DNA of 64,000 nt from Candidatus Omnitrophota bacterium. Its GTDB lineage: Bacteria > Acidobacteriota > Aminicenantia > UBA2199. The notes below the pieces were generated by a model. That model was given only the letters and a program-made list of their open reading frames with translations. It searched no databases and was not told where the DNA came from. The stretch lies in contig JBLMYT010000132.1 of NCBI GenBank assembly GCA_050258455.1, positions 82,349 through 146,348 on the forward strand, given 5' to 3'. This document shows positions 1 to 57,333 of the stretch, piece by piece. The first letter of the stretch is position 1, and every line of letters begins with the position of its first letter. The position numbers were made by a program, and so were the translations under genes.

Positions 1-3000
1 TCTGAGTTGCTCGACAAGGACAGGATTACTTGTTATGATTTCTACAGCTTTAAGCCAGAGTTGCTCCAAGTCGCTTATCTCGTCAAGATAGCCCCGGTTT
101 CCGGTTGAGACAAAGAAATCATTTAGGAAATCTTTTTCGGTTTGAAGTGAAAATGGGGGATACATTTTACCTGATAAAAAATCGGGACCTAAACAATCAA
201 AAAACGCCAATAAAGCAATTTCTTCATTCATCCGCTCAAGTTGCAATGCCATTTCTAGTCCGATATGTCCGCCCCAGGACCAGGTGGCAATATAATAAGG
301 CCCATGAGCTTGAATTTCCTTTATTTGTGAAATATATTTGGCCGATATTTGTTCGATGGTTTCATTTCGGGGGGCATAATTGCGAAGTTTTTCAGCTTCA
401 ATACCCCAGCAATTAAAGCGTGTGCCCAATTGCTGGCTAAATTCCATATATGCCCCCACATCCCCCAGTACTTCATGCACTAAAAAGATGTTACCTTCAG
501 ACTCAAGGGAGCCATTTAGCATTACAAAATTTCCGGGTACCTGCTTGGATGAACCGGGTAATTGGTGGGCGGTTAGACAGAGTACCAACGAATGAATCGT
601 CGGATGGTTAAATAAGGTAGCCACAGGTATTTCTCGGTTGAGCTTTTCTCTTAATTTATTAGATACTTTAACAAGGTCCAGAGAGTTTCCGCCCAACTCA
701 AAAAAATTGTCCTGAATGCCGACTTTTTCACGATTCAGAACGTCTTTCCAGATTCCGGCAACGATTCGCTGCATCCTGGTTTTGGGGCCTTCATATACCC
801 CGTCGGAATGAAAATCGGATTCCAAGGGTTGAGGTAAGGCGCGCCGATCCATTTTTCCATTAGCATTCAAGGGAATCTTGTCTATTTGAATAAAGCAAGC
901 AGGAACCATATAAGTTGGAAGGGATTCTTCAAGATAGATCTTAAATTCTTGATATGAGGGGATTGGAACCCCTGATGATTGCTCGGCGACAATATAGGCG
1001 CAAAGGTATTTGCGCTCATTCTCCCCCCTATCGATGACAACAGCGTCTTTTATTCCGGAATGAGCGTTGAGCCGGCTTTCGATTTCACCTAACTCAATAC
1101 GGAATCCTCTGATTTTGACCTGATTATCGATTCGCCCCAGGAATTCAATCGTTCCATCGTCCAACCATCTCCCTAAGTCTCCTGTCATATATATCCGCCT
1201 CGATCTCCAGAATAGAAAACGCTCATCGGTCAATCCCGGCCGGTTTAAATACCCCCTGGCCATTCCTTCCCCGCCAATGCATATTTCTCCAACAACGCCT
1301 ATCGGTTGAAGTCTTCTCATTCGATCAATAATATATACCTGATTATTGGCAATGGGAGTTCCGATGGTAATCCGATCGGAGCAGGTCAAATTTTTTATTG
1401 TCGACCAAATTGTGGTTTCCGTTGGACCATACATATTGAATATTTGTCCATTTATAAAAGGCCTGATTTTCTCCAGCAACGATTCGGGAAATGCTTCGCC
1501 TCCTACCAATAAGAATTTCAATGATCTTAAAAAAGTCATTACTTCCGGAAATAAGACCATTGATTGCAGTCTCGATGGCGTAACCTGAAAAATTGAGATA
1601 TTTTCTCTCTCAAAAATAACCCCTGAAGTCTCGGTATTTAATTGATCCTCCCGGCTGCCTACGACCACAACGGAACCCTTGGTTAAGGGAACCAAGGTTT
1701 CAAGGCCAAATATATCGAAGGAAATTGTGGTTAAAGACAATATCCGATCATTCATCGTAAACGGTACAAATTCTGTAATTCCTGTTATAAAATTTACGAC
1801 ATTTCGATGGGCGATCATCACACCTTTCGGTTTCCCGGTCGATCCGGATGTGTAAATGACGTAAGCGAGAAAAGTGGCCGGTGAAGAGAAGAAGTGAAGC
1901 GGTTGAGAGGTTGAGTGGTTAAGAGGATCTAAGGAGAACACATTCTTAACATCTGAACTTCCTAACTTCTGAACTTCTTGATTGTTGGCGGTAACCAACA
2001 ATCGCGCCTGGCTATCTTTTAGTATATAATCAATGCGATCTTGCGGATATTCATAATCAATGGGTAAATAGGCACTGCCTGTTTTTAATATACCCAAAAT
2101 TCCCATTATCATTTCAACCGAACGTTGGATCTTTATCCCTACAATCATACTCGATTGAACACCCTTTTGCATAAGTTCATGCGCCAGTTGATCGGATCGC
2201 TCATTCAATTCCTGATAGGTGATTTGCAAAGGTTTTGCACCAAATGCCCTTACGGTTGAGCCGATGACAGCAATATGCCCCGGAGTTCTTCCGGCCTGTT
2301 CCTCAAATAATTGATGGATCGTCTTATCTTTCGAATAATCTCTGTTTGTATTGTTAAATTCATCCAGTATTCGAATTTTCTCTTCTTCGGATAAAAAAGT
2401 TAATTCGTCAATCCTTAATTCTTTATCCTCAATCACCTGATCAATTGCGACCCGGAAGTGGCAAGCAATCCGTTTGATATAATCCTGATCATACACATTC
2501 CCGTTATATTGAAATGTAACAGTTAATTTATCCGACCCTGCCAACAAAATGTTCAAATTATAAGTGGTTTGTTCAAATGACTCGACATTGGTAATCGCAA
2601 ATGCGATTTTATTTTTTTTTCCGTATCCTTCGATTTGTTCGGCGATGGGGTAATTTTCGAATATAAAGATGTGATCGATCAGGTTTTGCTTTAATGAACT
2701 TTTCGATTGGACCTCCGCTAATGGATGATAATGATACGCTTCACCGACGATTGCTTGTTCTTGTATGTGTTGAAGTAACGAATGAAATTTTGTTTTTCCT
2801 TCAAACCGGATCCGGACGGGAATCGTGTTGATAAATAACCCCACCATGGATTCGATCCCTTCAAACCCGGCCGGCCGCCCGGATACAACGGCACCAAATA
2901 CGACATCGTCTTTCCCATTGTATTTGCCCAGAAGCACTCCCCAGAGGACGCGCGTCACGATATTGACCGTTACATGATACCGGGCTGCCAATTTCGCTAA

Positions 3001-6000
3001 TTCGGCTGTTTTTTCCTTGTCCAACTCAAAAGAAAAACGGTCATTTCGATATTCCTGGCTATTATCCCTTACTATCTTTGATTGGGGAATCCCGGTTTGC
3101 TCTTCAAAACCATCCAGGACATGTTCCCAGTACGCGGCGGATTCTTTTTTATCTTGTTTTTCGAGCCATTGGATATAACTTCGATAGGGTTTGGTTATCG
3201 GTAATTGGTAAACCCTATGTTGAACATAAGCGTTATAGATTTCAAAAAATTCGCTATTTAAAATCCCAATGCACCATCCGTCCATTAATATGTGGTGAAA
3301 ACTCCAGATAAATTCGTAAGTCGAATGATCCAGCCGGAGAATGGATGCTCGTGCCAGGGGCTCCTTACCCAAATCAAAGGAACGTTTTTTATCGTTTGCC
3401 TTAAAATCTTTAATAAACTTTTCTTTTTGTTCCTCACTTCCGATATTTATTATATCTTCGAAATAAAAATCAATGGCTCTGTTTTTTAATACCACCTGAA
3501 TCGGGCGATCCATATCTTTATAAACAAATGTGGTGCGTAACACATCATGTCGCCTGGCCAATTCATTTAAACTATGTTTCACTTGCTCAATGTTTAATTC
3601 CCCTTTCAAACGGTAAGAGGTTTGTTCAAAGTAGGATGAAGATTCCTCGACCAACGCATGAAATAACATCCCTTCCTGCATGGGAGATAAGGTATAAATG
3701 TCTTCAATATCCCCGTATGATTTCATTAATTGCTCAACAGTATCTATGGATAATCCTTTGTAGGTAAAATCAGCGGGAGTGAATTCCGGATTTTCTTTTT
3801 CGCTGCAAAACAAAATAATACGTTTAAGTTGGGAACTGAAATTATCAATTAACGCTTCGATGGTTTCCTTTTTAAAATGCGTCTGATTATAAGATAATGT
3901 CATGTTCAAGCAATTATTCGTTATCATTCCATTAATTTCCAGGCCATATTCCCTTCGATTGGCGATACTTTGCGAATTCCCCGCAGATTCTTTGGCAATC
4001 TCAAACTGGGAAATTTGCTTGATATCGGCATCGAATTGCCCCAGATAATTAAAGATAAGTTGAGGTTTTAATTTAAATTCGATTTCTTTTTTATTCTCTT
4101 CATCGGTAAGATATTTCAATATTCCATACCCGATTCCCTTGTTGGGAATTTTCCGCAGGGTTTCTTTGACCTCTTTGATTTGGCGTCCGATATCATGTGC
4201 ATACGTCATATCGAACCATACAGGGTACTCGATGGTAAACCAGCCAAGGGTTCTGCTAATATCGATATCTTCCATTATCTCTTCCCTTCCATGGCCTTCC
4301 GACGCAATTAATAAATGGTCGATCATCACTTCGGATTCGGGGTTTTCGAACGTTTTCTTTATCCCCATTCCCAATGCCGTTAACAAGATATCATTGACTT
4401 CGGTGTTGTAAATCCGGTTGATTTCGCCAATGAGCAATCCCGTTTCCCGCTCATTCAGACCAAAGGATACATTTCGGATATCCGCCCCGTTATTTTCGTC
4501 TCCGTCGAAATCTGTGGGTATATGAATCCCGTTTGAATGCGATTCCAGGTTAGACCAATAGGGTATTTCTTTCAAGAAATTCTTGCTATTCGCATATTCC
4601 GATAGTTTTTCCGACCAGAACTTGAAAGAATCGGTTTTGAGCGTTAAAGTCGGTGTTTCACCTCGTTTGTATTGACTGTACAGGGTTTCGATATCTTCAA
4701 ATAGGATGCGCCATGAAATGCCGTCAATGACCAGGTGATGGATGACGATCAGTAATCGATCGCCATCCTCGAGATGAAACAAAGCCACTTTCATCAATGG
4801 GCCTCTTTCCAGATCGATGCCGGCCTGTATGCGATTGGCTTTAATCTGAATTTCATCTGCGTGTCTTAATTCATATTCTTCAAACGAGAGAGGATGATCC
4901 AAACCATGACTGATTTGAACGACTGTGTTGAGCTCCTTATTTATGCTATAGGTCATGCGCAAGGCATCATGGTGCGTTTGAATTTCTTTAAATACAAGTT
5001 TAAGAATTTCCTTATCGAATCGCTCTTGGGAATAAAACATGACGGCCTGGTTGTAATGATGAGGCTCTGTTGGAGACGAATTGAAAAACATTTTTTGAAT
5101 CGGTGTTAACGGCACAATACCGGTAATTGCCGATTGATCCGGGATGCGTTTTATTTTCTTGACATGGGAGGATAATTCCGATATAAGAGGATATTGAAAG
5201 AGATCTTTCATCTCTAATTTATACCCTGCATGATTCATTCGTGATATAATCTGGATGGATTTAATGGAATCTCCACCAATATAAAAGAAATTATCATTGA
5301 TTCCTATGTTTTTTTTGCCCAGGACGCCCTCCCAAATCCGAACCAGTTCTCTTTCGATTTCATTTCGGGGAGCTGCATATTGATTTTCAATTTCCATCCA
5401 GGGCTCCGGAAGAGCATTCATATCGATTTTACCATTTGGATTGATCGGTATTTTTTCCATTACGGTAAAATAAGAAGGAATCATATAATGGGGTAATAAT
5501 CCGGATAAATATTCTTTTAACCCTGCCGGATCAAAGGAATGATGCATGGGGGATGAAGGATGAGGGACAAGATAAGCACAGAGAACATTCGAACCGCTAT
5601 CATCATGTCTGATCTGAACCACGACTTCTTTAATATCCACATGCTTCATTAAGCAATTTTCGATTTCACCGATTTCAATACGCATGCCCCTGATTTTAAC
5701 CTGCGTGTCGACTCGCCCCAAAAATTCCAGGTTCCCATCGGCTAACCATCGCCCCATGTCCCCAGTCCTGTAAATGCGTTGCCTCCGGCGGCCCGCTTTT
5801 TGAAAAAAGCGGGGCAAAAACTTTTGGTTTGTTAATTCGGGATTATTGAGATACCCGACGGCTAAACTGGAACCGGCTAAACACATTTCGCCCATGACAC
5901 CGATTGGAACCGGATGAAGATATTTGTCCAGGATATAAACCCTGACATTACTGATGGGTTTTCCGATGAATGCTTTGGAACTTTCCGGCCTCAATTCATA

Positions 6001-9000
6001 AGCGGTGGTGTTGACACTGTTTTCCGTGGGACCGTACTCGTTAAAGATTCGGACTTGCGGTAATTTTTCAAAATGTTTCCGAATCAATTCATCCGGGAAA
6101 TTCTCGCCCGCGCAGGTAATCATTTTAATTCCTGTCAGACAATCCCCGATCTCTTCCAGCATGACATTATAAAAAACGGGAACCACGATAAAATGACTCA
6201 CGCGATGGTTGATGATGACGCGTTTGAGAACCTGAAGATCCGTGCGTTCATTATCTTTGATCAACACCAGACAGGCGCCACCCGATAATGGAGTAAAAAT
6301 ATCGGTAACCGAACTATCGAAAAAATACGGCGGCACTTGAAGCGACACGTGACCCGGTGCATATTGATAATTGTTTTTGCGCCATATTACCGTATTGACA
6401 ATAGTGCGGTGTTTGACCAAAACGCCTTTGGGTGTTCCGGAAGAACCGGAAGTGTACATCACATACGCGGCATCATTGACGGTACCCATTTGAGGTCTTG
6501 AGGAACGCTGAACATGGAGATTTAGCGCATCCGTATAGATAATTGTTGATATGTATTTACTTTTCTGTTGAACATGCGTAAGCTTTTCCCCATACCGTTG
6601 GTTTGATATCACCACGCTGACCGACGCATCATCCAGGACCACGCGCAACCGTTCACCCGGAAGCGATGCGTCGAGCGGAACATACGCGGCTCGCGCTTTC
6701 ATAATTCCCATTAGAGATATCATAAGACCGATGGAACGATCCATGATGACAGCAATTCGATCCCCGGATTGTACTCCGTTTTCGCGTTGTAAATCATGCG
6801 CCAGCCGGTTGGCTTCTTCATCGAAATGACGATAGGTGATCATTTCATTATTAAATACAATCGCCGCATGATCCGGAATTCTATCCACCCAATCCTCAAA
6901 TAAATGATAGAGAGTTTTATCTGTAGGATAGGATTCCGCAGTATCATTAAACAAAACGAGAAGTTTTTCTTTTTCCTCTTCGGATAAAATCTCTATATCC
7001 GAAAGTCGTTGATCTCGATTCTCGATAATCGAATCGACAATGGTTCTGAAATAATCTATAAACCGTAAAATGGTTTCTTCTCTAAATAAACTCGTGCTAT
7101 ATTCGACATTAATCCTTAATTTCTCTTTACTTTCAAATATAATAAAGGTTAGATCAAACTTGGATATAAAATTTTCGTATTCATAAGGTTTTAATATCAA
7201 TCCCGGGATTTGAATTTCAGATATCTCGATATTTTGAAATACAAACATCGTATCAAAAAGTGGGTTACGGGACATGTCCCTATTCTTAACCACCCGATCC
7301 ACAAGATCTTCAAACGGGTAGTCCTGGTTTTCAAACGCATTCAACGTCTTTTCTTTGACCTCTTGAAGAAACCCGTTAAATGTTTTCTCCCCCCGTGGAT
7401 AATGACGCATGGCCAGTGTATTGACAAACATGCCCAGAATTTTTTCCAGATCCGTATGACGTCGCCCGGCAACCGGAGAACCGACTACGATATCGTCCTG
7501 CTGGGATAATCCGGATAAAAAAATGTTGTATATGGTTAGAAATACCATATACATGGTGGCACCCGTTTCAAGACTTAACCGTTTCAAGTCTTCGGTCACC
7601 TCTTGGTCGATCTCAAACGAAATCGTCCGACCTTCAACACTCCGAACCGCTGGTCTTGTATAATCAATGGGAAGTTCAAGTACCGGAATGTCTTCTTCGA
7701 ATTCATGGGACCAGAAAACGCCTTGGCGTTTCAGAAACTCTTTCTGTTGGTCACTGCTTTGCCATTCTGAAAAATCTTTGTATTGAACCCGAAGTTTGGG
7801 CAAACCCTCTCCCGGGTATTCTCCTTGATGATACAATGTCATAAAATCCTTTATCATCACATTCATGGAGCTGCCGTCCGAAATGATGTGATGCATGTCT
7901 AGCATCAGGAGATGTTTATTCTCACTTATATTGAACAGTCCCACTCTCATCAGTGGGGCTTTTGTCAAATCAAAACTTCTGATAAATTCTTCTAACTCTC
8001 TTACCCCCTGACCTTCTTCGCTTCTGACCTTCTTCCTTCCCCCCTCCGTGTCCTCCGTGTGCTCCGTGAGAAAATTTATTTTAAATTCCACCTCATCGTG
8101 AATACGCTGAACCGGTTCATCATCGATCACATGAAACGATGTTCGCAAGCTTTCATGACGCTCGATTAGCCGGATGAACGTTTGTTCCAGCTTATTTTTA
8201 TCAACGTCTCCTTCCAATATAAAATAAGCCGGAATATTGTAATTGATGCCATGGTCATCCATCCGGTGTAACACATATAACCGCTTCTGTGCCGAGGATA
8301 ACTCATAAAACTCTTTCCTCTCGATCGGCTCTATCGAGAAATATTTATTTTTAACAGAGTCTTTGATATAATACGCTAATCCACGAATGGTCGAATTGTT
8401 GAATACCTCTCCCAATGGCATATTGACATGGAATTGTTTTTGAATTTTTGATATCAATACAACTGCCTTTAATGAATGTCCCCCTAACTCGAAAAAATTG
8501 TCTGCTGTTCCGATGACTTCTTTTTTTCTTCCCAATACCTCGGACCAAAGCTCCGTTAATTTCTCCTCGACCTCATTTTCCGGGGCGATATATCCCTGAT
8601 TTATTTTTATCTCAAAAGATGGTAAGGATCTACGATTTATTTTTCCTGTTACCGTAAGGGGTAACGCATCCAAACGCATAAAATAAGACGGTACCATATA
8701 ATCCGGCAATGTATGGGATAAATGGTTTCTCAATTCGGAAGTTGAGAGTGCGATATCCGAAACAACATAAGCACGAAGATATTTATCCCCCCTATCCTCT
8801 TTAATAACAACAACCGCTTCCTTTATTTTCTCATGTGATAGTAATCGATTTTCAATTTCTTCCAACTCAATTCGGAATCCCCGAATCTTCACCTGTTGAT
8901 CGAAGCGGCCCAAAAACTCAATATTCCCATCATCCGACCATCGACACAAATCTCCCGTCTTATAAAAGTTTTTGGAAAACTTCTCCAAGGTTAATTCGGG

Positions 9001-12000
9001 TCGATTCAAGTACCCGCGGGCCAATCCCTGACCTGAAATCCATAACTCACCCGCTATCCCTATACTTTGCAAATGACCGTATTTGTTTAAAATAGATAAC
9101 TTAATATTGGGTAACGGTTTTCCAATCGGAACAGTATTGCTTTTATTCTCGCGCGACAGCGAATACCAGGAGGCATATACGGTGCTTTCGGTCGGCCCAT
9201 AAATATTCTCCAATTTTACGGATGTATTCAAATCGTTGAATTTTTTGACCAGCTCAGGGAGTAACGCTTCTCCGGCTAAAAAGATATATTTTAGACTCGA
9301 TAACCGATACCTATTCCTCGTATTCAAATAACCGATAAACGCATTGAACATGGAAGGAACAAAATTAATATGAGTGACCAATCGCCTTTCAATCGTATTC
9401 AATATGACATCAGGATCTTTTTCAAACCCTTTTTCCAATACGGCTAACCGTCCCCCTCCCATAAACCATCCGAAGAGTTCGGTTACCGATACATCAAAAA
9501 CGTAAGATGTTTTTAAAAGATAAGTATCCGATTCATGAAAAGGATACTTGTCTTGCATCGCATATAATAAATTGACAACCGATGCATGATTCACCATTAC
9601 GCCTTTGGGATTCCCGGTGGAACCGGAGGTATAAATGATGTAAGCAAGGTTTGAATGTTTAGCCACAGAGGTCACAGAGGACACGGAGGGAGAGGAGAAG
9701 TTAAGAGGGTGAGAAGATGGGAGGTTAAGATGATCTAAAGCGATCACTCTCTTATCTTCTGAACTTCTTAACTTCTCAACTTCTGCATTATTGCTGGTAA
9801 GCAATAATGCCGCCCCACTGTCTTTGAGCATATAATTAATACGCTCTTGCGGTAATCCGGGATCAATGGGTAAATAAGCGCCACCGGCTTTCAAAATACC
9901 CAGGACACCAATCATTAGTTCAAGCGAACGATCAATCTTAACACCCACAATCACATCGGGGCCAACCCCTTTTTTTATTAATTCGAGCGCCAATTGATCG
10001 GATCGCTCATTCAAGTCATTGTAAGATAATTGAGGGCAGACACGCGGGTCTGCTCCTACCAAAGATGGACCTATAAGAGCGACATGACCCGGCGTTCTTG
10101 CGGCTTGTTCCTCAAATAACTGATGAATGGTTTTATCGTTTGGATATTCGATTTCCGTATCATTAAAACCAAATAATAATTTTTCCTTTTCTTCATCAGT
10201 AAGAATTTCAAAATCCGAAATCTTTCGGTCTTTATTTTCAACATTTTCAACATTTTCAACAACACCATTGAGGATATTTTTTAAATAAACAATCAATCGC
10301 TCGATCGTCTCTTTTTTAAATAACCTTGTACTGTATTCAAATGCAAATACCAGTTTTTCATCGACTTCCATCCCAGACAATGTTAAATCGAATTTGGATA
10401 TTTTAGTCTCATACGCATAAGAAGATAATTTCAATCCGGGAAGCTCCATTTCTTGCAGTTGGAAATTTTGCAACACAAACATGACATCAAACAACGGGTT
10501 GCGAGCGGTATCTCGATGGATAACGACATGTTCAACCAATTCCTCATATTGGTATTCCTGGTTCTCAAACGCACGCAATGCGTTCTCTTTGACTTCAGTA
10601 ATGAATTCGGTAAATGATTTCTCCCCTTCCGGGTAATTTCGTAATGCCAGGGTATTGATAAACATACCGACAATTTGTTCCAGGTCCGAATGGTTCCGAC
10701 CGGCAATGGGTGAACCCACAATGATATCTTCCTGATTGGTTACTTTTGATAAAAATACGGTGTATGCCGCCAGGAGTACCATATACAATGTGGCCCCGGT
10801 TTCTATCGCCAATTGATTCAAATGTCCGGTTAGCTCTTGATCGATCTCAAAATTAATGCTGCTTCCTTCAAAGCTCTGAACCACGGGCCTTGCAAAATCT
10901 AGCGGAAGTTCCAATACGGGGATCTCCCCACTAAACTCATTTAACCAAAAATCCTTTTTCTGATTTAGCGATTCTTTTTCGAATTCCCTCTTTTGCCATT
11001 CCGAAAAATCTTTGTACTGCACCCGAAGAGATGGTAAATCCTCATTGTTATATAAAGCCATGAAGTCCTGAACCATCAAATTCATGGAAGTTCCATCCGA
11101 AATGATGTGATCCATGTCGATCAACAGAAGATGTTTATTCTCCCCTATTTTTAACACTCCCACTCGTATGAGTGGGGCTGTTGTCAAATCAAAACTTCTG
11201 ATAAATTTTTCTATCTCTCTTACCCTCTGACCTTCTTCACTTCTTATCTTCTTCCTTCCCCCCGCCGTGTCCTCCGTGTGCTCCGTGAGAAAATTTATTT
11301 TAAATTCCACCTCATCGTGAATACGCTGAACCGGTTCATCATCGATCACATGAAACGATGTTCTGAAACTCTCATGTCTACGGATTAATGCCCAAAAAAT
11401 TTCTTCAAACTTTTCCTTTTGAACTTCTCCTTCCAGTAAGAAAATATACGGTACATTATAGCCTTCACTCTGCTCGTCCATTTGGTGCAGCAAATATAAG
11501 CGCTTTTGAGCGGAAGATACCGGGTAATATTCCTTCTCTTCTACCGGGAGAATCGAGTCGTGCCCCACCTGGGTCTGTTCCTTGATATATTCGGCTAATC
11601 TCCGAATGGTCGGCGTTTTGAACAACTCAGCCAATGGTATTTTTACATGCAATTCTTTATGTATCCTGGCTGCAAGGATGGTGGCTTTAAGTGAATGACC
11701 GCCAAGATCAAAAAAATCCGAATCGATCCCGATGAGGTTGGATTCAAGATTCAATACCTCGGACCACAATGAAACCAATGTCATTTCAATTTTAGTACGA
11801 GGACCGCTATAGGTTTTATCCGTCCGGGCTTGCGGCTTTGGCAAGGCACTGCGGTCGATTTTTCCATTGGACGTGAGCGGTATCCGATCGATTCTGACAA
11901 CAAAACTCGGAATCATATAATCCGGCAGCACTCCGGTCAGCAACCGCTTGATTTCAGTTGGATCGATGTCTTTATCACTCACGATATAAGCGCATAAATA

Positions 12001-15000
12001 AATATCGTCCGATTCATCGGTTCGATCTACCACCACCACTTCCTTGATCCCCCTATACTTCAATATCTGGTTTTCAATTTCGCCTAACTCGATGCGGAAT
12101 CCCCGAAGCTGAACTTGATGATCGATTCGTCCCAAATAAACCAGCTCGCCTTTTTCCAGAAACCGGGCCAAATCGCCCGACCGGTACAGCCGCTCCTCTT
12201 TTTTATAGGGATTTTCAACAAACTTCTCAACGGTTAATTCCGGCCGATTCAGGTACCCTCGGGTGACGCCAGCCCCTCCCACCATCAATTCTCCACCAAT
12301 GCCTATCGGTTGCAATTGCAGGTTTCGGTCCATGATATAAGTGGTTAAGGTAGGAATGGGCTGACCGATATTGCTCACATTCTGTTCGATTTCGCCACGA
12401 CCGATCTCTTTATAGGTCACATGAACCGTGGTTTCCGTAATACCAAACATGTTGATTAAACGGGTACTGGGATATTGCTCATGCCATTGTTTCAATTTCC
12501 CGGGATGGAGGGCTTCGCCCCCAAATATGACGGTGCGTATTGCCAAACCGTGTCTTTCCTGTTGTAAATCAACTTCAATGAACCGATAAAATGCAGATGG
12601 GGTTTGGTTCAGGATGGTTACGCCATACTGTCTCACAAGGGAAAGAAAATGCGCCGTATCTCGGGCAACCATCTTGGGAACAACGACGACTCTGCCGCCA
12701 TTTAACAGGGAGCCGAACAGTTCCCATACGGAAAAATCAAAACAATGGGAATGAAACATGGTCCATATGTCCGAGCCATTAAAGTCAAATTGAAATTTTT
12801 CGTTAAACAGCAGGCTCACGACATTGCGATGCTCCACCATCACGCCTTTGGGTCTTCCGGTGGTACCGGAGGTGTAAATGATATAAGCGAGAGAGGTGGC
12901 CGGTGGCCGGTGGCCGGCACTTGGGCAGACACGCGGGTCTGCCCCTACGCGGATTTCCCCTTGTAGGGGCGCACCCATGTGTGCGCCCGCCTTGCAGAAA
13001 CTCGGATCTGCCCCTACGGAATAATTAACCAATAAACACGCTCGACTATCCATTAACATGTAATCGATCCGGTCCCGGGGATAATCCGGATCGATCGGTA
13101 AATACGCACCGCCGGATTTTAAAATCCCTAAAATTCCGATGATCATCTCAACGGAACGTTCGGCTTTTATTGCAACGAGGGTGTCCGGCCCAACCCCCTT
13201 CTCGATTAATAATGCGGCCAATCGATCGGATTCTTCGTTCAATTCGTGGTAGGTGATTTGATGGGTGAATACGCTTGAAGTCTCAACTCGAGACGGACCG
13301 ATGACGGCAATCCGATCGGGAGTCTGAGCCGCATTTTTCTCAAAAAAATTATGAATCGTTTGATCCTTAGGGAAACCGGCCCGTTCCCCATTCCATTCCC
13401 ACAACAATTGCTCTTTTTCCACTTCGGATAGCAGGTCGATCCGGGAAATGGGAAGATGGGGGTTCACGATCACGCGTTCCAATATCTGTTGATAATGAGT
13501 CAATAATCGCGAAATCCTGCTTTGATCGTAATAGTCGCGATTGTACACCAATTGACCGCAAAAAATCTCGACGCCATGATGGATTCGCTTCTGAATCAAG
13601 AAATTCAGATCGTATTTCCCCCACCCCAGATTGGTTTCTTCGACTTCGAGAACCGCTTCTCCCAGTGTGGATTTCCAAAAGGGGGCTTCTTCATATTGAA
13701 ACAACACATCAAATAAGGCGGTCCGACTCATATCATTTTCCGGGTTTAGTTCCAGCACCAATCGGTCAAACGGCATTCCCCCGTAAATCAATGCTTCGGA
13801 CACGGTTTCGTTTAATTTCTCAAACACGTCGCTAAACGTGTGACTGCCCTCGATAACACTTCGCAAGACCAATAAATTGGCGGCGGGTCCAATCATGGGT
13901 TCCATGTCGGGACTCGGACGGTTTCCCGTACTGGTCCCCACAATAATTTCCGACTGATCACAGTATCGATGCAATAAAATTTTAAAGGCAGACAATAACA
14001 ATAATAGAACAAAATCCCCCCCCTTTTCTTTATTAAAACTAAGGATTTTATTGGTCAATGATTGGGGAAATACAACCGGGTGATGCGCTTCATGATAAAT
14101 ATGAATTAATGCCCGGGGTCTATCCGTCGGTAATTCAAATGGCTGGAGTTTACCATTTAGCTTCCGTTTCCAATAAAATAAGAGCCGATCCAGAAGTTCT
14201 TCCGAAAATGACTGCTGCCAACTGCAAAACGCAGGAAACTGGATCGCAAGTTCCGGTAATTGCGGGGATTGGCTTTCCTCAAACGCGTCATAGGATAATA
14301 CCAATTCGTTTAAAAAGAGCTCCAATGACTGTTTATCCGCCACAATATGATGAAAGGTTATTACCAATAGGAATTTTTGAGTTTCCCACCGGATTAATTT
14401 TCCCCTGATCGGAAGGTCATGGGACAGCCGGAAAGGTTTTTGGGATTCAGCGATAGCCAGGGAAAGGGCATCTGTATCGCTGAGATGACAAACGGTATCT
14501 GTGAAAAGCTTAAATTGTAACGCATTATCCTCGACCAGGATCGGTTTATTCTCTCTTGTTTCGATCCGGGTATGCAAAATCGTGTGACGTTTGATAATAT
14601 GGCAAATACTTTTTTCCAGCAATGGTTCATCGACAGAACCATTAATCGATACGATCAACGGAATATTATGATAAACCGGAGAAGATTCATAGAGATACCC
14701 GGTTTCAAATTCATTGATAAACCACAACCGTTCCTGGTGATACGACGCCTTACCTTCGGAGGTTTTCGCCGGAGGAAGAATCCGGGGAGGATACCAATGG
14801 CAGATATCGTCGTCTAACAGTAACCGGGATATGGATGTTGAGGAATGCGTGATCACTCGGTTCAGTAATTCAAGAAAACGATTCAGCATTCGCCGGATGG
14901 TTTTATTCTCAAAGAGATCAAGGTTATATTCAACGGAAACCGTTAATGTGGTTTCTCTCTCATAAATATAGATCACCAAATCAAATTTTGCATGACGATA

Positions 15001-17205
15001 ACCGGTCTCAAAAGGTTTGAGTTTCAAGGCGTTTCCCAAAACATTCGGTTGAGGCGATGTATAATTAATCATGTTTAACATCACATCAAACAACGGATGC
15101 CGGGAGGGATCTCGTGATATTTTCAAGGCTTCCAAAAGGACATCAAACGGATACGACTGATGCGCATAAGCTTCCAGGGCGATTTTTCGGACTTTCTCCA
15201 ATAATTCGGCAAACGTATTCATGCTCGTGAACCGCGTTCGTAATGCCAGGGTATTCAGATAAAATCCAATCTGGTTTTCCAGGTCCATATGTTCTCTTCC
15301 GGCGATGGGAGTGCCAACGATCATATCCGTTTGGCCACTGTAACCGTAAAACAACACATTGATCAAACCGAGAAATACCATAAACAGCGTGACATCATTT
15401 TCTTTACCCAGATTTCGCAATTTCTCGGTTAAATCTTCATCCAGATCGACCGAAACGGTATTCCCCCGATAACTTTTTATGGCCGGGCGCACAAAATCTG
15501 CCGGTAACTCCAAAACCGGTAATTCCCCTCGGAATTGTTCCAACCAGTAACGTTCATCTTCGTGCGCCTTTCCTTGCAAAAATTGCCGATTTTGCCATGC
15601 GGCAAAATCTTTATATTGAATCCGCAACCGTGCCAACGGATTTTGTTTGCCCTGTCGGTATGCATCATAGAGTGCCCTCACCTCGGAGATGAAAATATCC
15701 ATAGATACCGCATCACTGATAATGTGGTGCATATTGAATAGGCACACATATTTTTCCATATCCAATCGGATGAGTCTGACTCTTAATAATGGCCCCCGGG
15801 CCAGGTCGAATAGAAATTCCGATTCTTTACAAGCCTCTTCTTTGATTCTACCTTCCTTGTCATTCAGTTGCCGAAAATCCGATTCCTCGACATTAAAGTC
15901 GCTTTGTCCGGGAAGTTTGACACGTTGTTTCGGTTCTCCATCGATTGGAATAAATACGGTACGTAAACTTTCATGCCGGTTTACCAGGGTATAAAAGGTT
16001 TGTATCAATGCGTTGGTATCCAATGCCCCATCGATTATCGACGCACTGGGCATATTAAACGCGATACAACTGTCTTCAATCTGGCTCCCTGTCCAAACGC
16101 GCGTTTGCGAATGCGTGAGATCGTAATATTCTTTTTCCTCCACGGGCTGAATCCGTTCATATACCGCGTCGTCCGATTCCCTGATTTTTTTTACCCGGCC
16201 AGGGGACGCGTTGGCGCCTGATGAGTGGCCTCTCAATTGGAAATTACCGGAGTACTCGACTTTAGCTGGGTCCTTTAAAATATCCATCCATGTTTTGACC
16301 AACTTTTCCCGGATATCATTTGGGGAGTTGCAATTATCGATTTCTCTTTTTATTGGCTCATGGATGGCTTTATTAAATAACTGCTTCTTTTCTTCTTCGG
16401 GGATAACTTCAATTTCCGATACCTTTATTTCTAAATTCGATAACACCATTTCCGAAAGATGATGAAAATGATCCCCAATTCGTTTGATCGCTTCACGGTT
16501 ATAAAAACGCGCATCATAGTGGATTTTACCATTAATTAATCCGTTAACGCGTGAAAACAAAAACACCACTTTCGGACTGACACGTGAAATATCCCCTCTA
16601 TTCTGGATATTTTCCAGGATAATCGCCACATCGAAGAGCGGGCACTCTTTTTCAGAAAACCTCGCCCCCAACTGCCGAACCAATACCTCAAACGGATAAT
16701 TGCGATTTTCCTCGGAATCAATGACGGTCTGCCTGACCTGAAGCAGTAATTCTTTAAAGGTCATATGATCCGTCAACCGGTTCCGCAATGCCAATATCGT
16801 ATTGATAAACTCACCCCGATTGCCTTCATTATTCTTAACCTTTCCCCCGTTATTCTTTTCTCCGTGTCCCCCGTGTGCTCCGTGAGAAACCCCCGTTCCA
16901 ATGATGATATCCTCATGATCCGTGTATTTTGAAAGTAAAAGAGTCAGTATGGCACTCAAGACAATATGAAGACGGATATCCGAATCCGCACTCAGTTTCA
17001 TTAAACGCGACGAAAGTTCTTCATCAAAAAAAATATCGATCGAATTTCCCCCCAAAACCTCGACGTTTTCCTGTATGGGCGTATAAGGAAAATGACTTTT
17101 TATCAAATCGCCGGATAATTTTTCAAGCCAATATTCCTTTTCTCTCACCTTCTTTCCCGCTGCCATCCATAATCTGTCAAAACCGGATAAATCTCTGACA
17201 CTCAT
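1..17205 (-). CDS. Multimodular non-ribosomal peptide synthetase; four A domains, an epimerization domain and a terminal thioesterase are visible; the 3' end is partial and continues past the window start
   Basis: The minus-strand frame (codon first positions divisible by 3) is open from the ATG at 17205 (MSVRDLSGFD..., GGAG 7 nt upstream) to position 1. The ORF track shows no competing long ORF here because the stop lies outside the window. Reverse-complement translation gives the A3 motif LAYIIYTSGTTGRPKG at about 12850 and similar YTSGSTG motifs near 9640, 6470 and 1860. Carrier-protein motifs DLGGHSL (about 11700) and ELGGNSLDL (about 660) are present. A condensation motif MHHIISDG lies at about 7900. 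The epimerization motifs IHHLVIDGISW (about 4760) and EGHGRE (about 4290) are followed by a DCL-type condensation start YPLSPMQEGMLFH. A thioesterase serine motif TWSWGGHIG lies at about 260-290. Confidence 0.92.
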   Translation of the reverse strand, partial: MSVRDLSGFDRLWMAAGKKVREKEYWLEKLSGDLIKSHFPYTPIQENVEVLGGNSIDIFFDEELSSRLMKLSADSDIRLHIVLSAILTLLLSKYTDHEDIIIGTGVSHGAHGGHGEKNNGGKVKNNEGNRGEFINTILALRNRLTDHMTFKELLLQVRQTVIDSEENRNYPFEVLVRQLGARFSEKECPLFDVAIILENIQNRGDISRVSPKVVFLFSRVNGLINGKIHYDARFYNREAIKRIGDHFHHLSEMVLSNLEIKVSEIEVIPEEEKKQLFNKAIHEPIKREIDNCNSPNDIREKLVKTWMDILKDPAKVEYSGNFQLRGHSSGANASPGRVKKIRESDDAVYERIQPVEEKEYYDLTHSQTRVWTGSQIEDSCIAFNMPSASIIDGALDTNALIQTFYTLVNRHESLRTVFIPIDGEPKQRVKLPGQSDFNVEESDFRQLNDKEGRIKEEACKESEFLFDLARGPLLRVRLIRLDMEKYVCLFNMHHIISDAVSMDIFISEVRALYDAYRQGKQNPLARLRIQYKDFAAWQNRQFLQGKAHEDERYWLEQFRGELPVLELPADFVRPAIKSYRGNTVSVDLDEDLTEKLRNLGKENDVTLFMVFLGLINVLFYGYSGQTDMIVGTPIAGREHMDLENQIGFYLNTLALRTRFTSMNTFAELLEKVRKIALEAYAHQSYPFDVLLEALKISRDPSRHPLFDVMLNMINYTSPQPNVLGNALKLKPFETGYRHAKFDLVIYIYERETTLTVSVEYNLDLFENKTIRRMLNRFLELLNRVITHSSTSISRLLLDDDICHWYPPRILPPAKTSEGKASYHQERLWFINEFETGYLYESSPVYHNIPLIVSINGSVDEPLLEKSICHIIKRHTILHTRIETRENKPILVEDNALQFKLFTDTVCHLSDTDALSLAIAESQKPFRLSHDLPIRGKLIRWETQKFLLVITFHHIVADKQSLELFLNELVLSYDAFEESQSPQLPELAIQFPAFCSWQQSFSEELLDRLLFYWKRKLNGKLQPFELPTDRPRALIHIYHEAHHPVVFPQSLTNKILSFNKEKGGDFVLLLLLSAFKILLHRYCDQSEIIVGTSTGNRPSPDMEPMIGPAANLLVLRSVIEGSHTFSDVFEKLNETVSEALIYGGMPFDRLVLELNPENDMSRTALFDVLFQYEEAPFWKSTLGEAVLEVEETNLGWGKYDLNFLIQKRIHHGVEIFCGQLVYNRDYYDQSRISRLLTHYQQILERVIVNPHLPISRIDLLSEVEKEQLLWEWNGERAGFPKDQTIHNFFEKNAAQTPDRIAVIGPSRVETSSVFTHQITYHELNEESDRLAALLIEKGVGPDTLVAIKAERSVEMIIGILGILKSGGAYLPIDPDYPRDRIDYMLMDSRACLLVNYSVGADPSFCKAGAHMGAPLQGEIRVGADPRVCPSAGHRPPATSLAYIIYTSGTTGRPKGVMVEHRNVVSLLFNEKFQFDFNGSDIWTMFHSHCFDFSVWELFGSLLNGGRVVVVPKMVARDTAHFLSLVRQYGVTILNQTPSAFYRFIEVDLQQERHGLAIRTVIFGGEALHPGKLKQWHEQYPSTRLINMFGITETTVHVTYKEIGRGEIEQNVSNIGQPIPTLTTYIMDRNLQLQPIGIGGELMVGGAGVTRGYLNRPELTVEKFVENPYKKEERLYRSGDLARFLEKGELVYLGRIDHQVQLRGFRIELGEIENQILKYRGIKEVVVVDRTDESDDIYLCAYIVSDKDIDPTEIKRLLTGVLPDYMIPSFVVRIDRIPLTSNGKIDRSALPKPQARTDKTYSGPRTKIEMTLVSLWSEVLNLESNLIGIDSDFFDLGGHSLKATILAARIHKELHVKIPLAELFKTPTIRRLAEYIKEQTQVGHDSILPVEEKEYYPVSSAQKRLYLLHQMDEQSEGYNVPYIFLLEGEVQKEKFEEIFWALIRRHESFRTSFHVIDDEPVQRIHDEVEFKINFLTEHTEDTAGGRKKIRSEEGQRVREIEKFIRSFDLTTAPLIRVGVLKIGENKHLLLIDMDHIISDGTSMNLMVQDFMALYNNEDLPSLRVQYKDFSEWQKREFEKESLNQKKDFWLNEFSGEIPVLELPLDFARPVVQSFEGSSINFEIDQELTGHLNQLAIETGATLYMVLLAAYTVFLSKVTNQEDIIVGSPIAGRNHSDLEQIVGMFINTLALRNYPEGEKSFTEFITEVKENALRAFENQEYQYEELVEHVVIHRDTARNPLFDVMFVLQNFQLQEMELPGLKLSSYAYETKISKFDLTLSGMEVDEKLVFAFEYSTRLFKKETIERLIVYLKNILNGVVENVENVENKDRKISDFEILTDEEKEKLLFGFNDTEIEYPNDKTIHQLFEEQAARTPGHVALIGPSLVGADPRVCPQLSYNDLNERSDQLALELIKKGVGPDVIVGVKIDRSLELMIGVLGILKAGGAYLPIDPGLPQERINYMLKDSGAALLLTSNNAEVEKLRSSEDKRVIALDHLNLPSSHPLNFSSPSVSSVTSVAKHSNLAYIIYTSGSTGNPKGVMVNHASVVNLLYAMQDKYPFHESDTYLLKTSYVFDVSVTELFGWFMGGGRLAVLEKGFEKDPDVILNTIERRLVTHINFVPSMFNAFIGYLNTRNRYRLSSLKYIFLAGEALLPELVKKFNDLNTSVKLENIYGPTESTVYASWYSLSRENKSNTVPIGKPLPNIKLSILNKYGHLQSIGIAGELWISGQGLARGYLNRPELTLEKFSKNFYKTGDLCRWSDDGNIEFLGRFDQQVKIRGFRIELEEIENRLLSHEKIKEAVVVIKEDRGDKYLRAYVVSDIALSTSELRNHLSHTLPDYMVPSYFMRLDALPLTVTGKINRRSLPSFEIKINQGYIAPENEVEEKLTELWSEVLGRKKEVIGTADNFFELGGHSLKAVVLISKIQKQFHVNMPLGEVFNNSTIRGLAYYIKDSVKNKYFSIEPIERKEFYELSSAQKRLYVLHRMDDHGINYNIPAYFILEGDVDKNKLEQTFIRLIERHESLRTSFHVIDDEPVQRIHDEVEFKINFLTEHTEDTEGGRKKVRSEEGQGVRELEEFIRSFDLTKAPLMRVGLFNISENKHLLMLDMHHIISDGSSMNVMIKDFMTLYHQGEYPGEGLPKLRVQYKDFSEWQSSDQQKEFLKRQGVFWSHEFEEDIPVLELPIDYTRPAVRSVEGRTISFEIDQEVTEDLKRLSLETGATMYMVFLTIYNIFLSGLSQQDDIVVGSPVAGRRHTDLEKILGMFVNTLAMRHYPRGEKTFNGFLQEVKEKTLNAFENQDYPFEDLVDRVVKNRDMSRNPLFDTMFVFQNIEISEIQIPGLILKPYEYENFISKFDLTFIIFESKEKLRINVEYSTSLFREETILRFIDYFRTIVDSIIENRDQRLSDIEILSEEEKEKLLVLFNDTAESYPTDKTLYHLFEDWVDRIPDHAAIVFNNEMITYRHFDEEANRLAHDLQRENGVQSGDRIAVIMDRSIGLMISLMGIMKARAAYVPLDASLPGERLRVVLDDASVSVVISNQRYGEKLTHVQQKSKYISTIIYTDALNLHVQRSSRPQMGTVNDAAYVMYTSGSSGTPKGVLVKHRTIVNTVIWRKNNYQYAPGHVSLQVPPYFFDSSVTDIFTPLSGGACLVLIKDNERTDLQVLKRVIINHRVSHFIVVPVFYNVMLEEIGDCLTGIKMITCAGENFPDELIRKHFEKLPQVRIFNEYGPTENSVNTTAYELRPESSKAFIGKPISNVRVYILDKYLHPVPIGVMGEMCLAGSSLAVGYLNNPELTNQKFLPRFFQKAGRRRQRIYRTGDMGRWLADGNLEFLGRVDTQVKIRGMRIEIGEIENCLMKHVDIKEVVVQIRHDDSGSNVLCAYLVPHPSSPMHHSFDPAGLKEYLSGLLPHYMIPSYFTVMEKIPINPNGKIDMNALPEPWMEIENQYAAPRNEIERELVRIWEGVLGKKNIGINDNFFYIGGDSIKSIQIISRMNHAGYKLEMKDLFQYPLISELSSHVKKIKRIPDQSAITGIVPLTPIQKMFFNSSPTEPHHYNQAVMFYSQERFDKEILKLVFKEIQTHHDALRMTYSINKELNTVVQISHGLDHPLSFEEYELRHADEIQIKANRIQAGIDLERGPLMKVALFHLEDGDRLLIVIHHLVIDGISWRILFEDIETLYSQYKRGETPTLTLKTDSFKFWSEKLSEYANSKNFLKEIPYWSNLESHSNGIHIPTDFDGDENNGADIRNVSFGLNERETGLLIGEINRIYNTEVNDILLTALGMGIKKTFENPESEVMIDHLLIASEGHGREEIMEDIDISRTLGWFTIEYPVWFDMTYAHDIGRQIKEVKETLRKIPNKGIGYGILKYLTDEENKKEIEFKLKPQLIFNYLGQFDADIKQISQFEIAKESAGNSQSIANRREYGLEINGMITNNCLNMTLSYNQTHFKKETIEALIDNFSSQLKRIILFCSEKENPEFTPADFTYKGLSIDTVEQLMKSYGDIEDIYTLSPMQEGMLFHALVEESSSYFEQTSYRLKGELNIEQVKHSLNELARRHDVLRTTFVYKDMDRPIQVVLKNRAIDFYFEDIINIGSEEQKEKFIKDFKANDKKRSFDLGKEPLARASILRLDHSTYEFIWSFHHILMDGWCIGILNSEFFEIYNAYVQHRVYQLPITKPYRSYIQWLEKQDKKESAAYWEHVLDGFEEQTGIPQSKIVRDNSQEYRNDRFSFELDKEKTAELAKLAARYHVTVNIVTRVLWGVLLGKYNGKDDVVFGAVVSGRPAGFEGIESMVGLFINTIPVRIRFEGKTKFHSLLQHIQEQAIVGEAYHYHPLAEVQSKSSLKQNLIDHIFIFENYPIAEQIEGYGKKNKIAFAITNVESFEQTTYNLNILLAGSDKLTVTFQYNGNVYDQDYIKRIACHFRVAIDQVIEDKELRIDELTFLSEEEKIRILDEFNNTNRDYSKDKTIHQLFEEQAGRTPGHIAVIGSTVRAFGAKPLQITYQELNERSDQLAHELMQKGVQSSMIVGIKIQRSVEMIMGILGILKTGSAYLPIDYEYPQDRIDYILKDSQARLLVTANNQEVQKLGSSDVKNVFSLDPLNHSTSQPLHFFSSPATFLAYVIYTSGSTGKPKGVMIAHRNVVNFITGITEFVPFTMNDRILSLTTISFDIFGLETLVPLTKGSVVVVGSREDQLNTETSGVIFERENISIFQVTPSRLQSMVLFPEVMTFLRSLKFLLVGGEAFPESLLEKIRPFINGQIFNMYGPTETTIWSTIKNLTCSDRITIGTPIANNQVYIIDRMRRLQPIGVVGEICIGGEGMARGYLNRPGLTDERFLFWRSRRIYMTGDLGRWLDDGTIEFLGRIDNQVKIRGFRIELGEIESRLNAHSGIKDAVVIDRGENERKYLCAYIVAEQSSGVPIPSYQEFKIYLEESLPTYMVPACFIQIDKIPLNANGKMDRRALPQPLESDFHSDGVYEGPKTRMQRIVAGIWKDVLNREKVGIQDNFFELGGNSLDLVKVSNKLREKLNREIPVATLFNHPTIHSLVLCLTAHQLPGSSKQVPGNFVMLNGSLESEGNIFLVHEVLGDVGAYMEFSQQLGTRFNCWGIEAEKLRNYAPRNETIEQISAKYISQIKEIQAHGPYYIATWSWGGHIGLEMALQLERMNEEIALLAFFDCLGPDFLSGKMYPPFSLQTEKDFLNDFFVSTGNRGYLDEISDLEQLWLKAVEIITSNPVLVEQLR

Positions 17206-17389
17206 TTTAAAAAAATCTCCTTATTGCTTATGAGCCCTTACAAATGATCGTTGGATTTTTACAAAATTCTGACTTTTTAAGGTAGCATAATAACATATTT
17301 AAATTATTTGTTCAATGACAACGATAACCAATCATCGGAATTTAAAAAATTATATTCCTTTACGTGATTTTTTTTAATAATCCCGGAAA

Positions 17390-17800: not shown

Positions 17801-17851
17801 GAATATTTTCTCAAAAGACTTTATACTTATCGGTTAATGAATAGGATTTGA

Positions 17852-34984: not shown

Positions 34985-35002
34985 CCCTGATTCTCCTTCA
35001 TT

Positions 35003-52041: not shown

Positions 52042-52085
52042 CCGCGGAACAGATAAACCCCCGGGGTCATGCTCACCCCGGGAGC
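52042..52085. terminator. Rho-independent terminator hairpin
   Basis: cccggggt-catgctc-accccggg, then a T/A-rich run. Confidence 0.55.
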
Positions 52086-52134
52086 TTTATTATTAAAATT
52101 TGTGTGCCTCGGCAAGGATGAAATCAAGGCACCA

Positions 52135-57307: not shown

Positions 57308-57333
57308 GTAGGGGCAGACCCGCGTGTCTGCCC
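57308..57333. repeat. GC-rich hairpin repeat element (gtaggggcagacccgcgtgtctgccc), the same family as the copies embedded in the NRPS at 10034-10056, 12923-12944 and 12965-12990
   Basis: Seen directly; an 8-bp stem GGGCAGAC/GTCTGCCC. Confidence 0.8.

Follow-up and report, generated by a model that had tools for sequence, protein, structure and literature searches.

GTAG-tagged palindromic repeats and other hairpin repeats embedded in frame in loops of a giant nonribosomal peptide synthetase gene of Candidatus Omnitrophota

We analysed a stretch of 64,000 nucleotides (the window; contig JBLMYT010000132.1, positions 82,349 to 146,348) from a metagenome-assembled genome (MAG) of a Candidatus Omnitrophota bacterium (GCA_050258455.1), the left end of which is taken up by a 17-kb nonribosomal peptide synthetase (NRPS) gene. 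We found that hairpin repeats of the extragenic type are embedded in the reading frame of this gene, namely a 26-nt, GTAG-tagged repetitive extragenic palindromic (REP) element (family 1) and a hairpin made up of tandem nonamers (family 2). We consider it likely that these are selfish or neutral repeats which are tolerated in permissive loops of the enzyme. An earlier, sequence-only reading of the region had assumed one element plus variants; instead, at least two (two or three) unrelated repeat families are present.

The NRPS gene (1..17205, minus strand) occupies one frame without stops, 5,740 codons long, in the window translation (minus strand, 17220->1; first ATG at 17205). It encodes more than 5,735 amino acids (aa), and the C-terminus lies beyond the left window edge: the thioesterase domain touches this edge and the frame leaves the window just past it. 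The domain map obtained with Pfam and self-BLAST reads C'(half)-C-C-A-T-C-A-T-C-A-T-C-C-A-T-TE (C, condensation; A, adenylation; T, PP-binding; TE, thioesterase), and Condensation, AMP-binding, AMP-binding_C, PP-binding and Thioesterase are the only Pfam families in the protein, with no auxiliary domain. We numbered the A domains A-dom 1 to 4 (starting at aa 1293, 2369, 3441 and 4972). The catalytic core motifs are all intact in the repeat-bearing A-dom 1 and A-dom 2 and, because the whole region forms one stop-free frame of 5,740 codons, each insert keeps the frame, just as had been claimed for every copy. As an observation on the gene itself, its N-terminus (16375-17205, minus strand) is the C-terminal half of a condensation domain without the HHxxxDG motif; in an alignment with a full C domain, residues 4-282 correspond to positions 169-453.

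The REP unit of family 1 consists of an unpaired GTAG, an 8-bp stem GGGCAGAC/GTCTGCCC and the 6-nt loop CCGCGT, i.e. GTAG-GGGCAGAC-CCGCGT-GTCTGCCC. The 22-mer GGGCAGACACGCGGGTCTGCCC matches exactly at 12923 and, on the reverse strand, at 57312, and with one mismatch at 10034; by chance no match would be expected. GTAG is located directly 5' of the stem in five of five window copies. Four copies are inside the NRPS gene: A-dom 2 has a singleton ahead of its core motif A1, and A-dom 1 carries a trimer in the A2-A3 interval. The singleton (GTAGGAGCAGACCCGCGTGTCTGCCC; 10034..10059, minus strand) matches the consensus at 25 of 26 positions and encodes VGADPRVCP (aa 2388-2396) in the pre-A1 beta-hairpin. 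In the trimer, the copy at 12923..12948 (minus strand) also encodes VGADPRVCP; it is followed by the stem variant GTAGGGGCGCACCCATGTGTGCGCCC (GCAC/GTGC; 12963..12988, plus strand), which is inverted relative to its neighbours, has the antisense reading GAHMGAPLQ and was also found in other phyla, and by a degenerate copy (GTAGGGGCAGATCCGAGTTTCTGC..; 12992..13017, minus strand) with 21/24 matches that encodes VGADPSFC. The degenerate copy has a local alignment score of 36, compared with a random maximum of 20 (20,000 windows). The REP is thus translated both ways in the NRPS, in the sense direction as VGADPRVCP and in the antisense direction as GAHMGAPLQ; in fact, five of its six reading frames are open. 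The fifth copy (57308..57333, plus strand) is located in intergenic DNA between a dehydrogenase gene and a hypothetical gene, as noted before us, and is 26/26 identical to the copy at 12923-12948, with which it forms an inverted-repeat pair of 100% complementarity.

Within the trimer (12923-13017), the middle copy is arranged tail-to-tail with 12923-12948 (14-nt spacer) and head-to-head with 12992-13017 (3-nt gap), so that in the coding sense a head-to-head dimer is followed by a tail-to-tail dimer. The tail-to-tail pair is predicted to fold as a long, REPIN-like hairpin (-56.6 kcal/mol, z -4.5). The same tail-to-tail arrangement is found beyond the window: the annotated 45-aa open reading frame (ORF) ACM3SY_05015 (P0129), on another contig of the same MAG, reads GAHMGAPLQ-13 aa-VGADPRVCP, and a REP dimer on a second contig suggests that the element is dispersed in this genome. 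Our census for this MAG, which covers the 64-kb window and this one ORF elsewhere, comprises five copies, four of them intragenic, and one dimer. A miniature inverted-repeat transposable element (MITE) was considered and rejected, as no terminal inverted repeats beyond the hairpin and no flanking duplications were found at the five REP sites. Separately from the REP, the intergenic region holds a tandem array (56686-57260) of ~13.6 units of 42/43 nt with 80-86% identity, which ends 48 nt before the intergenic copy. There is no convincing ORF within this array and, given its mixed unit length (42/43 nt), it is not a coding repeat.

Where do the copies lie within the A domains? The hairpins had been placed between A2 and A3, which is true of the trimer; the 10034 copy, however, sits in the N-terminal beta-hairpin of A-dom 2, preceded by '..TPGHVALIG' and followed by 'LSYNDL' (core motif A1); there VGADPRVCP falls opposite an exact 9-aa gap in the alignment with LgrA (PDB 6mfz). 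The A2-A3 intervals of A-dom 1 to 4 measure 71, 76, 71 and 67 aa; for 108 homologous A domains the median is 67.5 aa. As the length in A-dom 1 is near this median, the REP trimer replaces native loop sequence and adds little to it. In 65 of 87 homologues the spacing before A1 is the canonical 6 aa, and in A-dom 2 it is 15 aa; the REP-free pre-A1 loops of A-dom 1 and A-dom 4 have 15 and 14 aa, and the loops of A-dom 3 are canonical. The idea of inserts as added length therefore fails for the A2-A3 interval, which is hardly lengthened (71 versus 67.5 aa), and holds for the C domains, whose loops are longer: the loop with the family-2 copy at 16860 has 25 aa versus 13 aa in 20 of 23 homologues, and the C2-C3 region of C domain 3 has 55 aa versus a homologue median of 42 (~+13 aa). 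The nonamer insert between A2 and A3 of A-dom 2 adds ~9 aa relative to the paralogous A-dom 4. Judged by these comparisons, the family-2 sites are true net insertions relative to homologues (for the 9664 site, relative to the paralogue).

We further built AlphaFold2 models of A-dom 1 and A-dom 2 on homologue alignments. The A-dom 1 model has a mean predicted local distance difference test score (pLDDT) of 89.8 and a predicted template modelling score (pTM) of 0.88; its internal stretches of low confidence are residues 31-40 (66) and 121-160 (56, 41, 49 and 68), the latter corresponding exactly to the REP trimer plus the adjoining heptamer array, with residues 127-145 below 50. The A-dom 2 model (mean pLDDT 89.2, pTM 0.88) is low at residues 31-40 (77), a 13-residue coil between two strands that holds VGADPRVCP, and at residues 141-160 (65 and 61), which comprise the pyrimidine-rich arm and the nonamer peptide. 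A helix and a short strand that A-dom 2 has in the A2-A3 interval are missing from the A-dom 1 model. In both models the internal low-confidence stretches coincide with inserts only, so the models suggest that the inserts lie in permissive, predicted disordered loops. The A and C domains stay intact. Indeed, the a2-a3 interval of A domains is known to take up whole methyltransferase domains (TioN, MarQ; PMC11355689).

The motif of family 2 is made up of three tandem nonamers, (CACGGAGNN)x3, with the core CTCACGGAGCACACGGAGGACACGGAG. As described earlier, a motif of opposite orientation occurs in the C-domain regions: the core is present at 8044-8070, 11263-11289 and 16860-16886 with 0-1 mismatch, none being expected by chance. 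On the minus strand, the copy at 16860..16886 (CTCACGGAGCACACGGGGGACACGGAG, nonamer x3) encodes SHGAHGGHG in the first half-C domain, where it makes a +12-aa loop insertion, the copy at 11263..11289, located in C domain 3 within its C2-C3 region, encodes LTEHTEDTA, and the copy at 8044..8070, at the corresponding site of C domain 4, encodes LTEHTEDTE. An inverted and degenerate form (CACAGAGGTCACAGAGGACACGGAGG; 9664..9689, plus strand; 85% complementary) encodes SVSSVTSV in the A2-A3 loop of A-dom 2. The same DNA is thus translated in two frames and in both orientations at three non-homologous sites, and this pattern marks family 2 as a DNA-level element, not a protein-level motif. The NRPS holds single arms of the hairpin only. 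In a metagenome scan we found family 2 in at least 120 contigs, in the usual form of an arm of three nonamers CACGGAGnnCACGGAGnnCACGGAG, a loop of 15-40 nt and a complementary arm; among the matches listed, 50 of 145 sites have an inverted partner within 150 nt, and the element is depleted from long ORFs (3-19% versus 25-51% for random positions). Elsewhere, this nonamer is translated into His/Gly-rich sequence in proteins that seem to be genuinely His-rich (L214, L222).

In addition, the gene contains low-complexity tracts. A perfect heptamer array, (GGTGGCC)x3.3 (12895..12917; 100% in Tandem Repeats Finder), abuts the REP trimer and forms part of SAGHRPPATS, and the same program detects a perfect array (ATTTTCAAC)x3.1 at 10234. 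A purine-rich arm of octamer type at 9695-9723 and its inverted complement at 9749-9777 (9695..9777; a 29-nt pair with 83% complementarity) flank the codons of the native 'VIALD' strand, and a paralogous pair is located at 1883-1978. The octamer-like motif has nine matches in the window, all within the NRPS, with 0.32 expected. In the A2-A3 loop of A-dom 2 the octamer inverted repeat reaches z -3.7 versus shuffles and z -0.8 versus gene windows, which is only suggestive of a structured element; 9695-9777 is low-complexity loop sequence and only in part an insertion. The purine tracts at 9670-9740 and 1880-1940 lie in the A2-A3 loops of the second and fourth A domains, in agreement with the location that had been proposed for purine-rich inserts. 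The tract at 1880-1940, however, is not an independent insertion, because it is paralogous to 9690-9750 (70-78% identity in the N-terminal third).

To place family 1 in a wider context, we scanned genome contigs, one genome per species, with the DNA pattern GTAGGGGCRSACCCRYGTGTSYGCCC (~0.02 chance matches expected). We found at least 156 copies on at least 117 contigs from Chloroflexota, Acidobacteriota, Bacteroidota, Firmicutes, Cyanobacteria, Nitrospinota, Omnitrophota and many others. The loop is fixed by the pattern, so its conservation among the matches listed is uninformative. The stems, in contrast, are informative, because the pattern allowed 16 combinations and the variable positions are restricted to three paired types (GGAC/GTCC, AGAC/GTCT and GCAC/GTGC), complementary in 155 of 156 listed copies with one G.T exception. 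Flanks are unrelated among the listed copies, and inverted doublets 20-50 nt apart are common. Of the listed copies, 5-11% lie within ORFs that have at least 80-150 flanking codons on each side, compared with 27-52% of random positions. Short tandem repeats beside REPs (2.6% of flanks versus 0.9% of random windows) were dropped as a defining flank feature, the enrichment being weak. A near-invariant 26-nt GTAG REP with covarying stems across many phyla is unusual, as REPINs are usually described as lineage-specific. A further observation concerns L062 (2140-2510), from a MAG of the cyanobacterium Shackletoniella antarctica, where six tandem 69-nt units, each with a REP, lie in a frame that stays open for more than 1,200 codons.

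In two of the other genomes, L051 and L094, the same REP flanks genes resembling REP-associated tyrosine transposases (RAYTs) and is also embedded in frame within them. These RAYT-like Y1 transposase genes (L051, 2813-3418, plus strand; L094, 2466-3095, minus strand) have NF047646 (REP-associated tyrosine transposase) as their best NCBIfam match (E 6e-17 and 5e-18, respectively; both under the curated cut-off). The REP or REP dimer lies in frame immediately past the HUH motif, e.g. ..NHIHGIVVIVGADPRVRP...GGHMGPPLQEIIQWFK. By analogy, a RAYT may also mobilise the REP in the Omnitrophota genome. For family 2, no RAYT gene was found in 658 kb of its loci, and among the matches listed it is absent from the at least 117 REP-bearing contigs; therefore the two families do not travel together.

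Taken together, the proposal that a repeat family colonises tolerated loops is borne out by the GTAG-REP anatomy, the recurrence in intergenic DNA and on another contig, the mostly extragenic position elsewhere and the low-confidence loops of the models. According to the mechanism that we favour, a RAYT-type Y1 (HUH) transposase would mobilise REP copies via single-stranded hairpins, and copies arriving in coding DNA would persist only if they are in frame, free of stops and located in permissive surface loops. Embedded copies could then move between paralogous modules through gene conversion, and local slippage may add short tandem units, including (GGTGGCC)x3 at 12895 and (ATTTTCAAC)x3 at 10234. 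The odd peptides VGADPRVCP, GAHMGAPLQ and TEHTEDT / HGAHGGHG / SVSSVTSV would then be passengers without a dedicated protein function.

Several observations do not fit easily with tolerated selfish insertion. Four of the five window REPs are inside the NRPS and the remaining 47 kb of other genes hold one copy, an enrichment that simple tolerance does not explain. The REP sites are length-neutral (15 versus 15/14 aa before A1; 71 versus a median of 67.5 aa between A2 and A3), which fits replacement or conversion better than plain insertion. One way round this, that the pre-A1 loops of A-dom 1 and A-dom 4 are decayed REPs, is unsupported (p = 0.88 and 0.06, local alignment against 20,000 random gene windows). 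There is no empty-site orthologue among the homologues; the best match to the A1 region is 55% identical, which makes an empty-site comparison impossible. Finally, RAYT-like genes accompany 2 of 117 listed REP loci, both with scores below the curated cut-off, and no RAYT or other transposase gene is present in the 64-kb window.

Conversion inside the gene can be seen directly. C domains 3 and 4 have a background of 55-70% nucleotide identity, from which a tract of ~310 nt (11090..11400; partner ~7870-8180) stands out with 85-100% nucleotide identity; it is centred on the family-2 element and represents a recent gene conversion. As this tract joins them, the copies in C domains 3 and 4 are not independent events. 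A-dom 2 and A-dom 4 share 70-78% nucleotide identity from the domain start to A3, ~40% from A3 to A8 and 65-73% beyond, which is the classic pattern of A-core exchange. Because the identity drops after A3, the upstream boundary of the swap lies just past the repeat-bearing loop; A3-A9 exchange units have been described (PMC8097286).

We next compared the closest homologues of the A domains, which are 45-59% identical and come from MAGs of Acidobacteriota, Aminicenantes, Deferrimicrobium and Kapabacteria. Repeats in these loops had been called uncommon in NRPS genes. The claim stands only in part, since palindromic repeats of other kinds occupy these loops in several of the closest homologues from other phyla. 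The pre-A1 loop has 8-25 aa in many of the best matches, and in P0015 (Acidobacteriota) a different perfect GTAG REP, GTAGGGGCAGGTT-CTCA-AACCTGCCCC, is located at the same pre-A1 site. The A2-A3 loop of P0015 is a tandem-octamer hairpin ((GAGCGGAA)x4 plus complement, z -4.1), that of P0001, from another MAG, contains a MITE-like palindrome (-80 kcal/mol, z -3.6), and P0022 has purine and pyrimidine octamer arms resembling those of A-dom 2 and 4. The palindromes lie at 367-393 and 631-732 of L243 and at 1766-1924 of L244 (GTAG REP before A1; tandem-octamer hairpin or MITE-like palindrome between A2 and A3). As ~3-5 of the 11 A2-A3 loops examined are strongly palindromic and the rest unstructured, the pattern is recurrent, not universal. 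It is conceivable, if rather unlikely, that in one A-domain clade the A2-A3 loop and the hairpin ahead of A1 are recurrent landing pads for the palindromic repeats of each host, a pattern beyond tolerance in which hairpins attract insertion or conversion and bracketing repeats serve as substrates for conversion and subdomain swaps. If true, this would tie selfish repeats to the diversification of nonribosomal peptides.

Conversion tract, swap boundary and recurrent palindromes might also be expected if the hairpins were kept for a role of the nucleic acid in this 17-kb gene, as mRNA stabilisers, as pause sites of transcription or translation between folding units, or as recombination and conversion substrates for the exchange of modules and subdomains. 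Such a role would also agree with the enrichment of REP copies in the NRPS relative to the remaining window and with the stable predicted folds (the REP trimer with -56.6 kcal/mol mentioned above; the A1-domain loop with z -5.3 versus same-length gene windows). The loops of A-dom 3 are canonical, however, a structured A2-A3 loop is present in 3-5 of 11 cases, conserved core motifs suffice as recombination sites, and the same repeats are ordinary extragenic elements elsewhere. We therefore regard a nucleic-acid function as improbable, ahead of the remaining alternatives.

Less probable still is that the inserts are selected protein features, i.e. flexible linkers or docking or metal-binding loops (Cys/His-rich VCP or HGGHG) exapted from repeat DNA. 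One could point to the loop length, which is conserved although the sequence is wholly replaced, to the intact core motifs of the host domains and to the His-rich proteins L214 and L222. Yet the frame and orientation in which the same DNA is read change from site to site (TEHTEDT, HGAHGGHG, SVSSVTSV), the peptides are predicted to be disordered, and none of 79 C-domain and 120 A-domain homologues carries them. Moreover, two of the intragenic copies are 26/26 and 25/26 identical to the intergenic copy, which implies recent arrival. The suggestion of selected linker insertions was not upheld, as the sequences are also not at domain linkers and are missing from the nearest A- and C-domain relatives recovered, among which there was no true orthologue of the gene.

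An artefact, in which short-read metagenome assembly was mis-joined or collapsed at dispersed repeats to give chimeric modules or spurious inserts, deserves mention as the source is a MAG, and an independent Logan assembly (SRR24085925) breaks inside the family-2 core, at the start of L118 (16861), and within the 42-nt array, where L119 ends (56760). The start of L118 there is how a de Bruijn assembler behaves when it meets a repeat or length polymorphism. The Logan contigs and the window agree in every base over 21 kb, 5,740 codons are free of stops with correct domain order and register on either side of each insert, and the inserts (26-100 nt) are below typical read length. A mis-join at a REP would in addition require a REP in the same loop of both partners, and comparable inserts occur in independently assembled NRPS genes of other samples. 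We thus consider this explanation very unlikely. Least likely of all, birth of the nonamer, octamer and heptamer tracts in place by replication slippage in unconstrained loops, unrelated to dispersed elements, may account for the heptamer and VEN arrays, which are perfect and have no second window copy ((GGTGGCC)x3.3 at 12895, (ATTTTCAAC)x3.1 at 10234), and would suit the confinement of the octamer-like motif to the NRPS, but not for REPs or for family 2, whose 27-30-nt core is near-identical at three non-homologous sites of the gene and matches a hairpin repeat in at least 120 unrelated metagenome contigs.

In-frame palindromic repeats have precedents. Rickettsia palindromic elements (RPEs), reportedly described by Ogata et al. 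in 2000, are said to be selfish palindromic repeats that sit in frame in coding genes and are tolerated in surface-exposed segments of proteins that still function. The behaviour of our elements, in-frame selfish palindromic insertions in protein genes, is similar (see also PMC3733652). According to that paper, RPE-1 is longer than REPs, and the intragenic RPE-4 and RPE-6 of Rickettsia conorii belong to a CGTC-tagged superfamily; the element found here differs in being 26 nt long and GTAG-tagged, and has no sequence relationship to RPE families, as far as that source describes them.

The closest known system is the GTAG superfamily of Di Nocera, De Gregorio and Rocco (2013, BMC Genomics 14:522; PMC3733652), which in the abstract and three sections of the paper is described as comprising 24 families, with stem lengths of 5-13 bp and loop lengths of 2-20 nt, stem variants that keep their complementarity, dimers in head-to-head or tail-to-tail arrangement, occurrence in at least eight phyla and a link to RAYTs. 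With its unpaired GTAG, 8-bp stem, 6-nt loop, covarying stems, dimers and small cluster, and with copies that in other genomes are mostly extragenic, a minority lying within ORFs, our hairpin matches this superfamily, as characterised there, in anatomy and distribution. The same sections document in-frame intragenic REPs, e.g. in Opitutus terrae (uvrA, recB, dnaE2) and Rickettsia, with dimers encoding 20-30 aa and clusters 43-82 aa. Replication and repair genes stand out among the hosts they name, which also include tRNA synthetases, tRNA pseudouridine synthases and RNA helicases, and NRPS are not mentioned in the abstract and these three sections. Compared with the intragenic REPs described there, our case differs in the NRPS host in a Candidatus Omnitrophota MAG, in the length-neutral replacement of loop sequence, in the second hairpin family in the same gene and in the other palindromes in the same loops of homologues. 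The kind of event is thus already known; the gene type and the phylum are new.

As in the REPIN-RAYT system (Bertels & Rainey 2011; Nunvar 2010), two REPs in inverted arrangement combine into a longer hairpin (12923-12948 with 12963-12988, and the dimer on the other contig), and the same REP family is tied to Y1/HUH RAYT-like genes in L051 and L094. Described REPINs, in contrast, are extragenic as well as lineage-specific, whereas this 26-mer is nearly unchanged across many phyla and in L051/L094 lies inside the transposase frame, just past the HUH motif. Interrupted A domains (TioN, MarQ) also receive foreign sequence in the same a2-a3 interval, and the fold survives (PMC11355689, PMC8097286). 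Their insertions, however, are whole functional catalytic domains (M, KR, Ox; a2-a3 or a8-a9), whereas here they are repeat-derived peptides of 9-45 aa, with pLDDT 41-68 and predicted to be disordered. As Pfam shows no auxiliary domain in the protein, we rejected the identity of an interrupted adenylation domain. A literature search with the repeat sequences returned unrelated primer matches only, and a search on REPs and NRPS adenylation domains returned no title or abstract opening that deals with REPs lying in frame in loops of NRPS. With the 43-aa trimer peptide as query we obtained two candidates and one match, too few for a survey of REP-decorated proteins.

Some features of the window stand apart from the repeats in the gene. 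The divergent intergenic region upstream of the NRPS (17221-17851, 630 nt) is full of repeats with a phase of ~21 nt (TTTCCGAAAA / TTTCGACAAA-like) and also holds three 83-nt units; such a layout may represent an array of sites for the binding of a regulator. The remainder of the window contains housekeeping genes, e.g. ddl, mltG/yceG, dus and era. A gene pair at 34016-35974 (minus strand), 17 kb from the NRPS, encodes an ornithine cyclodeaminase/mu-crystallin and a PLP-dependent enzyme and resembles SbnB/SbnA (2,3-diaminopropionate synthesis), possibly supplying an NRPS building block. The 1,084-aa protein of 60403-63657 combines TIR, an AAA_16 ATPase and 11 tandem 126-nt TPR units (76-83% nucleotide identity), a STAND-like, defence-type architecture, and at 51249-53219 (minus strand) there are three tandem paralogous genes for small outer-membrane beta-barrels (63-81% nucleotide identity). 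At Rfam gathering thresholds none of the repeats in the window has a match, a tRNA at 37456-37528 being the sole match.

With our findings, the in-frame 'decoration' of proteins by REPs and REPINs now includes a giant biosynthetic enzyme and a candidate phylum. Annotators should take VGADPRVCP, GAHMGAPLQ and TEHTEDT, when met in MAG proteins, for translated repeats and not for motifs. The pre-A1 beta-hairpin, the pre-A3 loop and two C-domain loops are natural permissive sites of an NRPS for 9-45 foreign residues, which is useful for engineering and tagging. If targeting, or conversion promoted by the repeats, lies behind the recurrence of palindromes at the same loops in different phyla, this recurrence would also bear on the recombination of NRPS modules.

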